From contig CM000430.1 in the NCBI GenBank assembly GCA_000165345.1, forward strand, positions 480,001 through 544,000: a DNA stretch of 64,000 nucleotides, in the 5' to 3' direction. Shown one piece after another: positions 12,236-63,834 of the stretch. The notes beneath the pieces are model-generated. The model searched no databases and was not told the DNA's origin. It saw nothing but the letters and a program-made list of their open reading frames with translations. Made by a program: the position numbers and the translations under genes. Position 1 is the first letter of the stretch. Each line of letters begins with the position of its first letter.

Positions 12236-12299
12236 AATTTAGAATTAACACTACTGTTAAATTTTTATTAGGCGGCGTTAGTTATTCAATTATTTTGAA

Positions 12300-13303
12300 A
12301 TGGATTCTACAGCTTTAAAAGAAGAGATAATCGCACTCGAAAGTATATTTGGAGAAAGCCTTTACAACTTAGATAAGAGTGGACTCCCTTCCCCCGGTGT
12401 AAATTTTAATGATAAAGAAAGATCCCTTAAGTATTTTGTAAGTTTAAACTCGTAACTTTTTTCAATTTTTTAATATTTCTTCAGTCGGAATATCTTGATG
12501 GGATCTTGGAAATTAAAATTAGCATTCCATTTGGATACCCCTTAGAAGCGTCTTCTTTTTGTATATCTTCATGGTATTTTGACGTTCATTATTTAACAAA
12601 TTCAGAAGAATTACCGCAATCAAAAAATATCTCTCTAACTTCCAATACATTCAAGCAGTTAAAGGAACTAATTGAAACAAGAGTAGAAAGCAAAACCCCA
12701 ATTTTATTTGAGATAATTGACATTTTGATTTCCTGTAATATTGATCACGAGAAATATAAAACAAAATCAAGTATTAAAGAACAAAGAATTGAAACTAACC
12801 ACTTTGATCAATTTGATGGAGATAAAATTTTTGGTGTAACGCATGGCGAACCTATAATTGATCGAAAAAGTGTTTTCCAAGCTCATGCGTGTAAGGTAGA
12901 AACAGTTGAACAAGTTAAAAAAGTTATCAAATGGTTGCTTTCGAACCCAAAGATTGCTAAAGCAACGCACAATATTTGGTCATATAGAATATTCAAGGAG
13001 AAAAATTTCGCAGAAGTAACTGAAGGATCTTTCCCCATTGGGTACGATATCATATCACAAGATCACGACTCGGATGGCGAGAATGCAGCAGGAGGCAGAC
13101 TTCAACATCTTCTTGAAATTACTAATGCAAAGAATGTATTCGTTATGGTGTCTAGATGGTACGGGGGTATTCAACTAGGGCCAGACAGGTTTAAACATAT
13201 TAATAATGCTGCAAGGCTGATCTTAGAAAAATCGGGCTTAATAACTAGATCGGGGACTTTTTATAAACCGCAATCGAATAAAAACAAAAAGAATCAAATT
13301 TAA
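12300..13303 (+). CDS. IMPACT/Yih1 homolog (N-terminal RWD domain + YigZ/UPF0029 domain), 2 exons
   Basis: Exon 1 is 12300..12437 (MDSTALKEEIIALESIFGESLYNL...SLKYF; RWD-like opening). The intron 12438..12484 (47 nt) has a GTAAGT donor and TTTCTTCAG acceptor, phase 0. Exon 2 is 12485..13303 and carries YigZ motifs: GEPIIDRKSVFQAHAC, HNIWSYRI, DDGENAAGGRL, and VSRWYGGIQLGPDRF. The track ORF 12506..13303 is the TTG-initiated remainder of exon 2. Confidence 0.8.
12438..12484 (+). other. spliceosomal intron (47 nt, GTAAGT...CAG) of the IMPACT gene
   Basis: Canonical donor and acceptor. Splicing joins the RWD N-terminus in frame to the YigZ body. Confidence 0.7.
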
Positions 13304-13321
13304 TCGTTCTAAAAATGTTTT

Positions 13322-13803
13322 TCAATCTTTGGAAACTAAACTGCTGAATATCATATCTGGTACTCCTTTGGAAACAATATATCGATGGTTACATATTGGG
13401 CAGATCAACTCCGCCTCCATAATTTGAAACTATAAAAGTTAAATTGAAAAAAAAAAAATGATTATTAACTTACTCTTAAAATCGCGTCATGTACTGCGCA
13501 TAAAAAAACTTCATCATCAAAATCTTGCTCGGAATAACTCAACGGCAAGCTTAATCCAAATTGAGAAGCACTTTTTACTAGAACACCCCAATCTACCTTT
13601 TTTATTATTTGCTTAATTTGTTCTATATTAAATTCAACATCCAGCATTTTTGTCGATTCCTCAACGCTTCCATTCAAAGAAATTTCCAACGGAAAACCAT
13701 TCCTACATTCAGATCTATTACTTAAGTTATTAAAGATGGATATTTTATATTCATGTAATTATTTGACTTACCAAATTAAAATGTTATGAGTCAACAAACG
13801 CAT
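13322..13803 (-). CDS. TRM112: TRM112 (methyltransferase activator subunit Trm112), 3 exons
   Basis: Exons (minus strand) are 13803..13772 (MRLLTHNILI + TG), 13702..13474, and 13429..13322. The two introns are 13771..13703 (69 nt, GTAAGT..TGTAG) and 13473..13430 (44 nt, GTAAGT..TTATAG). The spliced product MRLLTHNILIWNGFPLEI...VEFNIEQIKQIIKKVDWGVLVKSA...FLCAVHDAILR/FQIMEAELICPICNHRYIVSKGVPDMIF aligns along its length with Trm112 (MKLLTHNLL...GFPL...VEFNPNFV..MIPKVEW..FL.AA...FL..MHHLLLEV..IEGTLQCP.SGR.FPI..GIPNMLL). Track ORF 13465..13689 is exon 2 alone. Confidence 0.75.
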
Positions 13804-14011
13804 TTTACTTTTGATAATCCTGATTTGACTAATCACATCATAGACATATCGACAAAATTTACGTTTTATCACCGCTTCATGGCGGCTTTCTCTTGCATGA
13901 CTTCTCAACTATTCTCTAAATTAGTAGTCATATACCTAAGGAATAATTTTTATAATAATTTATTAAAGAAATATTTTATGACCTGATTGTTGGAATCAAA
14001 TTTTTGCTCTC

Positions 14012-61164: not shown

Positions 61165-61557
61165 TTTTAGATATTGCAGAGTCAAAATTATGAATTTGAT
61201 CTATTTTTATTTACTACGGATCGTACAACATGTTCTTTAAAAACAAGTATATAGCTAATTCGCTTTTGTAAGAGTGCTATGGGCGTTTGAATAGACGCTA
61301 TTCGTAGATTATTACAATAAGAGGATGATCAGTTTAACAATTTATTAAGGAGCCAATCAATCACAATATTTTGAGGAAGTTTTTGAATAATTATTGCAGC
61401 ATTGCATTGCTCTAAAAATGGAGTACAGCAATAAAGGGGTGTTGGGCGCCAAAAAAACATGCACCCTTCGAATGTTTTTGCTAATAAAAGAAGAGGCTTT
61501 AGAGAATTAAAGATCATAGCTTCTTAACAGTCAATGCTGAAGTTTTAGTTTGAAAGT

Positions 61558-62115
61558 ATGTATGAATGCACAGACATATGTTCACAGAGGGAAGTAAGAC
61601 TTTCAATCTTCCCAGAAAAATATCCAGAGAAGAGGAAAATTTCTGAGGAAATACAAACTGAAAATATAGAACTTCAAACAGATTGGAGCACGAAATGTTG
61701 TTGTACTTCAAGAGTAAAGTTTTCAGATACGGACATTCAGGAGGATGCCACTATAGAGGGTGAGGGTAACTCAGGGGGACAAATAATCGATGAGATAGCA
61801 AACGTTATTTCAAATTATAGAAGAGATAGTGTCTTGAATACCATCTCAGAATTTGAAAAAAAATTGTTAACAATTGGAATGGCTGAAGAATTAAGCCCAG
61901 AAAACAGTGATACTGAAGGTAGTGAATATGGAGAGTTAAATATAAGAAGGCATTCTGAGCTGGCTTTTAAACCTTTGGTTTTAAGTGCCGTGGAAAATAG
62001 AAGAGCTACAGCTCCTGATAATATGAAAAGAAAAATTATTGATCAACTAAAAATACAAATAAATGAAGATAATACTGAAGAGTTAAGATCTAACCAAATA
62101 CCACCAAATAACTAA
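61558..62115 (+). CDS. hypothetical acidic protein (185 aa)
   Basis: ATG-initiated ORF, Glu/Asp-rich. No domain recognised. Confidence 0.4.
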   Translation: MYECTDICSQREVRLSIFPEKYPEKRKISEEIQTENIELQTDWSTKCCCTSRVKFSDTDIQEDATIEGEGNSGGQIIDEIANVISNYRRDSVLNTISEFEKKLLTIGMAEELSPENSDTEGSEYGELNIRRHSELAFKPLVLSAVENRRATAPDNMKRKIIDQLKIQINEDNTEELRSNQIPPNN

Positions 62116-62577
62116 ATTAAATGTAAATTTTTTAAAATCATTAACTTCGAACAAAAAAAAAATCATCGTGGTATTGATGGAATTTCTTGAAGAATTTTGA
62201 GAACAGTGAGCTCCGGGTATATTTTTTCAGTTGTAATACATCTAAGTGCGTTCAAATAAAAACATAGATTGATTAGGAAACACGAAGAATAGAATATTCC
62301 TTGTTTTTTTTCAAAAATTATTAATTGTGAAATTTGGATTATTTTTGTCTTTGAAAACTCATAAAATATGAACTTAAATAAATAGATTTCTGAGTATTTT
62401 GTCGATTATTTTCGAGATTGGAACTTAGTTTTTAATATTTAAGCGAAATAAATTTTGGCAATAAATAGTATTTAAAGACTATTAAGGTTCAAAGTTTCAT
62501 TTTGGCTATTTACTTTTTATATTTTATGATAGAAAGTAGGTCTAAGGAGTTAATATGGGACATTTTCTTCTTTTTTA

Positions 62578-63834
62578 ATGCAAAGTAAAAATATTCCGTA
62601 TCTGTTTTTTTTATTACATTTTCAAAATATATTTACATATAGGCGCCGGTTAACTGCATTGCATTTAAGGTTTAAACAAAAAAAATTAATGAAAATTAGA
62701 AAGTTATCATTAATACTAACTCTTAGTTTTATGAAGTTTTTTTATGTTTTTTGCTTCGATGAATCTTCAAACTCGATTAAAGAATCATTGCTGAACTGTT
62801 TGCCTCTGAAAAAGGAAAAACTGGGGAAAATAATTAATGGTAAAGAAATATACCCATTAGTCAGCCTAGAAATTAAAACTCAACAGCTTAAACTTGAAGG
62901 TGAAATTATTCCTTCTAAGATAGTTTCACGTCGTATACTTATTGCAAAAGGAGTGGTTCAATCCAGATTATTACCAAATGATGTTTTATATTTCAATACA
63001 AATACGAATAGTAATCAAGCAGTAAAAGCAAAACAATTAGTCGGGGTAGTGACTTATGGCAAAAATAATAGAAAAGAAGAGCTCTATTCTTCTTGCGATG
63101 GAATAATAAAAGAGGTTTTGCCGCAGGGTTTTCATGATTTTGAGGCTACTTTTTTCGTAATTTACTGTGATTTAAAAAATCCAGTGCTAAGTACATATTT
63201 TGGATACTCAATCGTTCCTATTACTGAGAAAAACACAGTTTTTGGAAAATTTGAAAATGCACCAGCTAAAAAAGAGATGAATATAAAAAAAGACAAGTTA
63301 AATGATCGTAATACTCGACTTATATCAAATAAAGAACACAAAAAATTATATTTTGAGCAAAGCACACATCACAAATATAACTCAAGTTTGGAGTATCAAA
63401 ATAGACAATCAACACATTGTGCTGGTAAATTTCAATTAAACTCGATTTGCATGAATGAAGGGGATTCAGCATCATCAGATAATTCGGAGAATCCTAGTAA
63501 CGTGAAAAGAGTTGAATTTCTCTACAAAAAATGTGTACCAAATAAAAGTAAGCCAGCAGATAGTTCATTAACAGTTAAGTTGAAAGCATACAGAAAAAGC
63601 TTAGAAGCTCTAAAACAATCAGTAGCAAACATTACAGACTTTTCTCGCGTAGGAAATATAAAATTGGAGGATGAAAAGCAACTAGACTTTGATAAACAAA
63701 AGAATTTAGCTTCAAAAATGTCTACTTTGTCCATTAAATATAGGATATGGATATCGTTTGCATTCACGATAATAATTCTAACACTTATAGCTTTGCTTAG
63801 AATATCTAGGTATTCTTTCACACATAGTACTTAG
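62578..63834 (+). CDS. type I membrane protein (signal peptide + C-terminal TM anchor), orphan; true start probably the ATG at 62689
   Basis: The in-frame internal Met MKIRKLSLILTLSFMKFFYVFCF looks like the signal peptide. A GGCGCC box lies 42 nt upstream of it. C-terminal hydrophobic anchor IWISFAFTIIILTLIALLRI. Confidence 0.55.
   Translation: MQSKNIPYLFFLLHFQNIFTYRRRLTALHLRFKQKKLMKIRKLSLILTLSFMKFFYVFCFDESSNSIKESLLNCLPLKKEKLGKIINGKEIYPLVSLEIKTQQLKLEGEIIPSKIVSRRILIAKGVVQSRLLPNDVLYFNTNTNSNQAVKAKQLVGVVTYGKNNRKEELYSSCDGIIKEVLPQGFHDFEATFFVIYCDLKNPVLSTYFGYSIVPITEKNTVFGKFENAPAKKEMNIKKDKLNDRNTRLISNKEHKKLYFEQSTHHKYNSSLEYQNRQSTHCAGKFQLNSICMNEGDSASSDNSENPSNVKRVEFLYKKCVPNKSKPADSSLTVKLKAYRKSLEALKQSVANITDFSRVGNIKLEDEKQLDFDKQKNLASKMSTLSIKYRIWISFAFTIIILTLIALLRISRYSFTHST

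Follow-up and report, generated by a model that had tools for sequence, protein, structure and literature searches.

What are the isolated GC-rich boxes that lie upstream of start codons in the AT-rich spacers of a compact Cryptosporidium parvum chromosome, and does their exact distance from the ATG matter? The question arose in a stretch of 64,000 nucleotides (nt) from GenBank assembly GCA_000165345.1 (contig CM000430.1, positions 480,001 to 544,000), which is the window analyzed here and to whose first letter all positions refer. An initial annotation of this window had listed boxes such as GGCGCC, GGCGGCG, GGCGGGAAA and the octamer TGCATGCA, had assigned them to the two main upstream motif families of Cryptosporidium and had proposed that GGCGCC acts as a positional core element at −42. 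Each of the listed boxes is found in place (at 12271, 15278, 16206, 29049, 38785, 40050, 40069, 59187, 62642 and 63980), and the observation is confirmed as real and as stronger than a reading of the letters alone could tell. We put a probability of about 0.85 on the explanation that the boxes are transcription-factor binding sites in short promoters, that they belong to the E2F-like and AP2_1 families, and that they occupy a proximal zone upstream of the gene rather than a single fixed position.

Enrichment and placement of the E2F-like boxes

The window is about 30% GC, and its long open reading frames (ORFs) are densely packed. The ORF for DNA polymerase epsilon subunit B has its closest relatives exclusively in Cryptosporidium, with a top match at 97% identity (in a cluster named C. 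tyzzeri), and the window is identical to the public C. parvum assemblies CP141119.1 and CP029781.1, in which all sampled 40-mers match. The gene map, the introns and the annotated start codons were taken from these two records, and the sequence was extended 4.9 kb past the window end. Genes take up 58.1 kb of this map and spacers 10.9 kb. The spacers have a GC content of 26%, near the figure of over 75% AT first given for them. We refer to the 24 spacers that hold at least one gene 5′ end (7.2 kb) as promoter spacers and to the nine 3′-3′ spacers (3.6 kb) as convergent spacers. The spacers that carry sites are short, at 64–570 nt.

The strict E2F-like pattern was defined as GGCG[C/G][C/G] (GGCGSS) together with its reverse complement, and the loose core as the pentamer SGCGS/SCGCS. 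Expected counts come from two nulls, namely 100 shuffles of the whole window and 1000 dinucleotide-preserving shuffles of the promoter spacers alone. The strict sites comprise five GGCGCC, three GGCGGG and three GGCGGC, to which the half-sites TTTGGCGG and TTTGGCGCAA can be added. All five copies of GGCGCC are intergenic; 1.03 were expected, and none of the whole-window shuffles reached five. The spacers (10.9 kb) hold 11 strict sites and the genes (58 kb) hold one, an odds ratio of 59 (Fisher p = 1.5e-8). Against the shuffled promoter spacers, the same 11 strict sites compare with a mean of 1.06, and 27 loose cores compare with 7.8 expected; neither count was attained in any of the 1000 shuffles. 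An unbiased scan that covered every 5-, 6- and 7-mer gave GGCGC/GCGCC as the sole word, other than A/T runs, that was spacer-enriched at the Bonferroni level.

The placement of these sites is as telling as their number. The promoter spacers hold every one of the 11 strict sites and 27 loose cores, and 19 of these 24 spacers contain a core. By comparison, the nine convergent spacers, two of which exceed 1.2 kb, contain no E2F-like core, strict or loose. This confinement to spacers with gene 5′ ends rules out a terminator or a general spacer signal and indicates promoters. When the sites are oriented, their flanks form a consensus with an [A/T]-rich 5′ side, GGCG(C/G)C and an A-rich 3′ side, which fits the E2F/DP consensus. 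Several sites were absent from the initial list, including GGCGCC at 48662 and 61445, GGCGGG at 5960, GGCGGC at 13881 and 26440, and the canonical half-sites TTTGGCGG at 20054 and TTTGGCGCAA at 57082-57091, both on the minus strand.

The lone strict site within a gene is TGGCGCG at 37778-37784, inside hyp753 (36453..38714, minus strand). Orthologues of hyp753 are annotated at widely differing lengths, from 510 to 835 amino acids (aa). Given this spread of lengths, the gene model, or the possibility of an internal or antisense promoter, may deserve scrutiny.

Conservation across four species

For comparison we used the syntenic regions of C. meleagridis, C. ubiquitum and C. felis, together with four-way MAFFT alignments of orthologous spacers. 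Proteins encoded in these regions are about 90%, 70–74% and 45–55% identical, respectively, to those of the window, and gene order and strands are the same throughout. The three species repeat the distribution found in C. parvum, with 1.3–1.65 strict sites per kilobase of promoter spacer, no more than 0.1 per kilobase of gene and zero in convergent spacers. Orthologous spacers retain a core, and its distance to the ATG is similar from species to species.

The boxes are under purifying selection while their flanks diverge. Invariant columns make up 52% of the core and 26% of the other aligned positions. When only G/C positions are counted, 52% of those in the core are invariant, compared with 14% of other spacer G/C (p = 2e-18). 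When blocks of 6 nt or more without any change among the four species were collected in an unbiased way, promoter spacers gave 20 and convergent spacers one; the collection includes GGCGCC, AGGCGC, ACGCGC, CATGCA, CATGCAC, TTGCATGA and TGTGGGG. The orientation of the nonpalindromic cores is free to vary, since GGCGG and CCGCC are both used and flips occur between species.

AP2-type sites

Matches to the AP2_1 motif (BGCATGCAH or the core TGCAT) are present as TGCATGCAT at 59187, GGCATGCAT at 16205 and GGCATGCAA at 29048. The full motif is too scarce in the window for significance: GCATGC occurs 3 times versus 0.96 expected (p ~0.09), with 3 spacer versus 5 genic copies. The shorter CATGCA/TGCATG is enriched, with 10 copies versus 2.8 expected, a count seen in none of 1000 shuffles. 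Conservation is uneven across these sites. CATGCA at 16207 and CATGCAC at 61458 do not vary among the four species, the 59188 site is kept in three of them and the 29049 site in two; at 29049, it is the adjacent G-box TGTGGGG that is the conserved part.

In each of the four species, E2F-like cores have a TGCAT/ATGCA no more than 25 nt away two to three times as often as random placement in the same spacer would give. In C. parvum there are 8 such cases versus 3.9 expected (p = 0.012). This proximity may reflect composite modules, or it may merely reflect crowding in the promoter zone.

Relation to known regulatory elements

The elements are already known, as the E2F-like and AP2_1 motifs of Oberstaller et al. 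2013. The leading over-represented upstream motifs of C. parvum in that study are E2F-like 3 (DTTGSCGCCH), E2F-like 4 (TTTGGCGGGAAV) and AP2_1 (BGCATGCAH), with E2F the most abundant (PMC3734150). Both motifs were first noted by Bankier et al. 2003, according to a 2025 review (PMC12246861). The assignment in the initial annotation was correct on this point, because GGCGCC, GGCGGCG and GGCGGGAAA match E2F-like motifs 3 and 4 and TGCATGCA matches AP2_1 (PMC3734150; PMC12246861). We see no difference in kind between the boxes of the window and the published E2F-like motifs. They share the same core ([C/G]GCGC[C/G] or GGCGGG), T/A flanks, restriction to upstream noncoding DNA and presence at a replication gene, and their prevalence is alike, at 19 of 24 promoter spacers here and 161 of 200 gene clusters in the literature.

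Candidate proteins exist for both families. For C. parvum, two or three genes for E2F and two for DP are reported (PMC3734150, PMC12246861, PMC4117751); cgd1_1570 and cgd6_1430 are named in the literature as E2F genes. The E2F motif is the top motif both in peaks of accessible chromatin from sporozoites (assay for transposase-accessible chromatin with sequencing, ATAC-seq) and in intra-polycistron spacers (bioRxiv 10.1101/2025.01.17.633476). In protein-binding microarrays, C. parvum AP2 domains bind TGCAT (PMC4117751), and the AP2_1 site is bound by cgd8_810 and other C. parvum AP2 domains. On the basis of this literature and of motif identity, we infer which proteins bind and what their effect would be. 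For the GGCGCC/GGCGGG/GGCGGC family, with its T-leaning 5′ flank and A-leaning 3′ flank, the most likely binding proteins are the E2F/DP winged-helix heterodimers of the parasite. With a core that is palindromic or orientation-independent, one site could serve a single promoter or, in a divergent pair, both. The TGCATGCA/CATGCA boxes are AP2_1 sites, putatively bound by ApiAP2 domains, and, often lying within 25 nt of an E2F-like core, may form composite modules with it. Binding by E2F/DP and AP2 would then activate or gate transcription.

It is useful to contrast these boxes with the E2F/DP sites of metazoans and plants, which follow TTTSSCGC and lie near the transcription start sites of TATA-less genes. 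The consensus, the use of either orientation, the proximal-promoter position and the association with replication genes are alike. DNA-replication genes are the classic type of E2F target, and the promoter of one such gene in the window, that of DNA polymerase epsilon subunit B, has a canonical TTTGGCGG; CCGCC or GCGCC is found there in all four species. The Cryptosporidium motif differs in that it stands upstream of most genes rather than of a cell-cycle subset and in spacers of no more than 64–570 nt. According to the literature, Cryptosporidium is also without pRb and most partners of E2F. E2F/DP is regarded as the dominant control of transcription in Cryptosporidium and is missing from other apicomplexans. 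The window reproduces that picture locally without changing it. What it adds is a footprint of single sites across four species and a positional profile with a peak at 41–90 nt, neither of which we found in the published accounts compared.

Several points weigh against reading the boxes as E2F/DP and AP2 sites. The octamer TGCATGCA, with one copy versus 0.64 expected, is not significantly enriched on its own in the window. No core is present in the promoter spacers 2374-2641, 3734-3860, 10563-10789, 24264-24608 and 27556-27908, and C. felis is without a core in four orthologous spacers. The four species are kin, and hence counts across them are not independent. Neither the E2F nor the DP genes are located within the window. 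More broadly, most regulatory components of the parasite are without functional validation, according to the 2025 review (PMC12246861), and in the literature consulted we found no report of direct Cryptosporidium E2F/DP binding or of reporter tests. For functional E2F/DP work in the genus from 2024 to 2026, a search yielded nothing beyond this review and the ATAC-seq preprint.

Distance to the start codon and alternative explanations

Distances from core to ATG were taken from annotated or corrected start codons for the 20 E2F-like cores of the four-species set. They cover 25–235 nt, and the median is 80 nt. Core density is zero within 20 nt of the ATG, rises to 7–8 per kilobase at 41–90 nt and, past 300 nt, is close to zero. 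Of the 20 cores in C. parvum, 15 lie at 21–120 nt (p = 7e-4). Some of this proximal preference is to be expected, since the far portion of a tandem spacer belongs to the 3′ end of the upstream gene. The initial annotation had described a short and fixed distance from the boxes to the ATG. The distance is indeed short, but it is not fixed, as the five GGCGCC lie at 42, 44, 44, 108 and 173 nt. A rigid −42 spacing is only weakly supported and at best a weak lead; a proximal zone of about 25–120 nt is supported instead.

One of these distances depends on a revised gene start. The annotated ATG of hyp325 is at 48510 (gene 47435..48510, GCA_031892065.1), and an in-frame ATG lies upstream at 48618 on the minus strand. 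The extra 36 codons specify an N-terminus that resembles a signal peptide (MIHKIKNFISIILFY...) and is also conserved in the three other species, and the residue at the annotated start is not methionine in C. ubiquitum and C. felis. Judged from these translations, the true start is most likely ATG 48618. A second start codon differs between gene models. For the gene at 59187-59232, the Iowa II model has 656 aa and begins at ATG 59194, inside the TGCATGCATGG box, whereas the newer assembly and the orthologues begin at the equivalent of 59230 and give 644 aa. In the 64-nt spacer 12236-12299, either neither of the 5′ untranslated regions (UTRs) reaches about 35 nt or transcription begins within the neighboring gene.

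The claim of a −42 element can be put in a strong form, in which GGCGCC at about 42–44 nt from the ATG sets the transcription start in the manner of a TATA box or an initiator. The distances offer something to this idea. Four of the 20 cores, those of hyp190, hyp325, hyp381 and hyp599, fall within one 3-nt window at 42–44 nt (scan statistic, p = 0.016 under uniform placement and p = 0.042 under the smoothed pooled distribution). They include three of the five GGCGCC (62642 at 42 nt, 15280 at 44 nt and 48662 at 44 nt with its corrected start) and GCGCCAAA at 44 nt from ATG 57132. As with TATA boxes and initiators, the boxes are near the gene start and none occupies the last 20 nt before the ATG. 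However, the distance for 48662 hinges on a start codon that was corrected after the data had been seen, and the remaining GGCGCC, at 108 and 173 nt, are the best conserved sites of all. The same four promoters have their cores at 30–81 nt in the other species. The spread of 25–235 nt, the drift of spacing between species and the lack of a preferred orientation, with a palindromic motif and nonpalindromic variants on either strand, all differ from a TATA box or initiator. Published work likewise saw "no outstanding pattern" for the GGCG-core motif relative to the ATG (Mullapudi et al. 2007, PMC1779779) and "no clear pattern" relative to start sites of long noncoding RNAs (lncRNAs) (Li et al. 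2021, PMC7840661). Fixed −42 spacing, marginal by the scan statistic under two nulls and not conserved in orthologues, was rejected, and we consider a position-fixed core element unlikely. Just as doubtful is a narrower proposal limited to hyp190, hyp325, hyp381 and hyp599, in which an E2F-type box about 40–50 nt upstream of the ATG, often with TGCAT (AP2) 8–15 nt downstream, would fix the transcription start. E2F/DP would then double as a core-promoter factor in a highly compact genome that is poor in TATA boxes, and the pairing of E2F and TGCAT sites would mark genuine composite elements instead of mere neighbors in a crowded promoter.

The remaining alternatives concern whether the boxes function at all, at which level and through which protein. 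That they are chance GC-rich words or a functionless by-product of base composition has next to no probability, even if single words are rare (TGCATGCA as noted above; GGCGGCG with one copy versus 0.21 expected). Chance is ruled out by the whole-window and spacer-only shuffles, by the contrast between genes and spacers, by the lack of any site in 3′-3′ spacers in all four species and by the invariance of core G/C. Action at the RNA level in the 5′ UTR, for example through translation control or RNA processing in polycistrons, has in its favor that several boxes 24–44 nt from the ATG could be transcribed and that E2F motifs have been reported between the cistrons of polycistronic transcripts (bioRxiv 10.1101/2025.01.17.633476). 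It nevertheless appears very improbable. The core is palindromic or used in both orientations, it flips between species (as at glutaredoxin, with CGCGC, CCGCC and GGCGG), and single sites stand at the center of divergent spacers (12271). These properties indicate a double-stranded site for a dimeric factor rather than a strand-specific RNA signal, and the motif marks open chromatin in ATAC-seq (bioRxiv 10.1101/2025.01.17.633476). The last alternative accepts a DNA-binding factor and exchanges E2F/DP for another, such as a C2H2 zinc finger, a Myb or a GC-specific ApiAP2 protein, so that the E2F label would be a matter of resemblance only. Indeed, the E2F/DP assignment in the literature is by motif similarity, with no binding assay cited (PMC3734150, PMC12246861, PMC4117751), and variants such as GGCGGC and CGCGC stray from strict TTTSSCGC. 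On the other hand, [C/G]GCGC[C/G] and GGCGGGAA with T/A flanks are the exact E2F/DP consensus. Cryptosporidium is, per the literature, the sole apicomplexan genus that keeps E2F/DP and also the one in which the motif dominates (PMC3734150, PMC12246861), and the microarray specificities of C. parvum AP2 proteins are TGCAT, CACACA and G-box rather than an E2F-like motif (PMC4117751). We rate a different factor as unlikely, a little less probable than a position-fixed element and more probable than an RNA-level role.

Catalogue of sites

Sites that are both precisely placed and individually conserved, such as the GGCGCC boxes at 61445 and 62642 or, at 16206-16232, the CATGCA-ACGCGC-TACGTA module, would make good targets for reporter mutagenesis. 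Individual sites are listed in Table 1.

Table 1. E2F-like and AP2-type sites in the promoter spacers of the window, with distances to start codons and their state in C. parvum, C. meleagridis, C. ubiquitum and C. felis
Position	Element	Setting	Distance to ATG	Conservation and remarks
5958..5968	E2F-like box ATGGCGGGAAG (GGCGGG 5960)	Divergent spacer, hyp336 / P4-ATPase	56 nt to ATG 5904(-); 173 nt to ATG 6138(+)	Beyond the range of the initial annotation
12271..12277	E2F-like GGCGGCG	Center of 64-nt divergent spacer 12236-12299, pseudouridine synthase / Impact/UPF0029	24 and 36 nt to the two ATGs	Orthologous place: C. meleagridis GGCGC, C. ubiquitum GGCGCC, C. felis none
13879..13886	E2F-like box ATGGCGGC	Divergent spacer, Trm112 / hyp167		Kept in C. 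parvum, C. meleagridis, C. ubiquitum; adjoining TTGCATGA at 13893 invariant in four species
15278..15285	E2F-like box TTGGCGCC (core 15280)	80-nt tandem spacer, hyp190	44 nt upstream of ATG 15236(-)	GGCGCC, GGCGCC, GCGCCA, GCGCCA at 44, 45, 48, 81 nt in four species
16206..16232	Module: GCATGCA (AP2_1-like), ACGCGC (E2F-like core), TACGTA	Divergent spacer, hyp234 / M24 peptidase		CATGCA 16207, ACGCGC 16218 and TACGTA 16227 each invariant in four species
20054..20061	Canonical E2F half-site TTTGGCGG, minus strand	Upstream of DNA polymerase epsilon subunit B gene	98 nt	
25280..25285	Loose E2F-like core CCGCCC	Divergent spacer, hyp191 / hyp217		Kept in C. parvum, C. meleagridis, C. ubiquitum
26438..26445	E2F-like box AAGGCGGC (GGCGGC 26440)	Upstream of hyp342	83 nt upstream of ATG 26527	GGCGG invariant in four species at 83, 84, 90, 84 nt; conserved TAGATC beside it at 26430
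28500..28504	Loose E2F-like core CGCGC	Upstream of glutaredoxin	68 nt	C. ubiquitum CCGCC, C. felis GGCGG (orientation flip between species)
29031..29055	Module: CCGCGC (E2F-like core), TGTGGGG (G-box), GCATGCA (AP2_1-like)	Upstream of hyp1869	235 nt (CCGCGC)	CCGCGC in four species at 235, 234, 236, 186 nt; TGTGGGG 29043 invariant in all four; GCATGC only in C. parvum and C. meleagridis
38785..38795	E2F-like box TTGGCGGGAGA	Upstream of hyp753	73 nt upstream of ATG 38714(-)	C. meleagridis identical, C. ubiquitum GGCGCG, C. felis none
40050..40096	E2F-like pair TTGCGCCAA 40050 and GAGGCGCCA 40069, then GATCTAAAAAC	Divergent spacer, hyp180 / hyp2319	173 nt (GGCGCC 40071 to hyp2319)	GGCGCC (40071) at 173, 173, 173, 198 nt in four species; GATCTAAAAAC invariant
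48660..48667	E2F-like box TAGGCGCC (GGCGCC 48662)	Upstream of hyp325	44 nt upstream of corrected ATG 48618(-)	GGCGCC in 4/4 species
57082..57091	Canonical E2F site TTTGGCGCAA, minus strand	Upstream of hyp599	44 nt upstream of ATG 57132	GCGCCAAA kept in C. parvum, C. meleagridis, C. ubiquitum at 44, 40, 63 nt
59187..59200	Abutting AP2_1 octamer and E2F-like half-site TGCATGCATGGCGC		30–37 nt upstream of annotated ATG 59230	GCATGC in C. ubiquitum and C. felis, GCATGT in C. meleagridis; GGCGC/GCCGCC core in 4/4 species
61444..61464	Module: GGGCGCCAAAAA (GGCGCC 61445), then CATGCAC	Upstream of hyp185	108 nt upstream of ATG 61558	GGCGCC 61445 and CATGCAC 61458 each invariant in four species; distances 108, 105, 112, 86 nt
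62640..62649	E2F-like box TAGGCGCCGG (GGCGCC 62642)	Upstream of hyp381	42 nt upstream of annotated ATG 62689	AGGCGC invariant in four species; GGCGCC at 42, 45, 50 nt; C. felis GGCGC at 45 nt
63978..63988	E2F-like box GAGGCGGGAAA (published motif 4 type; GGCGGGAAA 63980)	Upstream of nucleotide-sugar transporter	About 80 nt upstream of ATG 64067, just past the window end	GGCGGGAA in C. parvum, C. meleagridis, C. ubiquitum; GAGCGGGAG in C. felis

Other conserved blocks and long convergent spacers

Further promoter blocks are invariant in the four species, namely GATCTAAAAAC at 40086-40096, TAGATC at 26430-26435, TACGTA at 16227-16232, ACCACAC followed by TGCTACTTGACA at 56733-56766, TAATGGAT at 63966-63973 and TGTGGGG at 29043-29049. 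GATCTAAAAAC and TAGATC resemble the published unknown motif GAYCTMD, and TGTGGGG is the published G-box. The enrichment of GATCTA/TAGATC is not significant (5 copies versus 2.9 expected), although three instances are conserved all the same. Similarly, the G-box pattern G.GGGG is not enriched in spacers (3 spacer versus 18 genic copies), and TGTGGGG at 29043 is nonetheless conserved.

Finally, two of the convergent spacers are unusually long, at 17862-19104 (1243 nt) and 34881-36452 (1572 nt); neither contains an E2F-like core. An Rfam scan of the whole window, both long spacers included, found no structured RNA, and no ORF lying wholly inside these spacers exceeds 62 aa. In the spacer 17862-19104, 30% of columns are invariant in the four species, and C. 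felis has an annotated gene of 311 aa there (L016 7784..8939). The long convergent spacers may hold unannotated multi-exon genes or lncRNAs.

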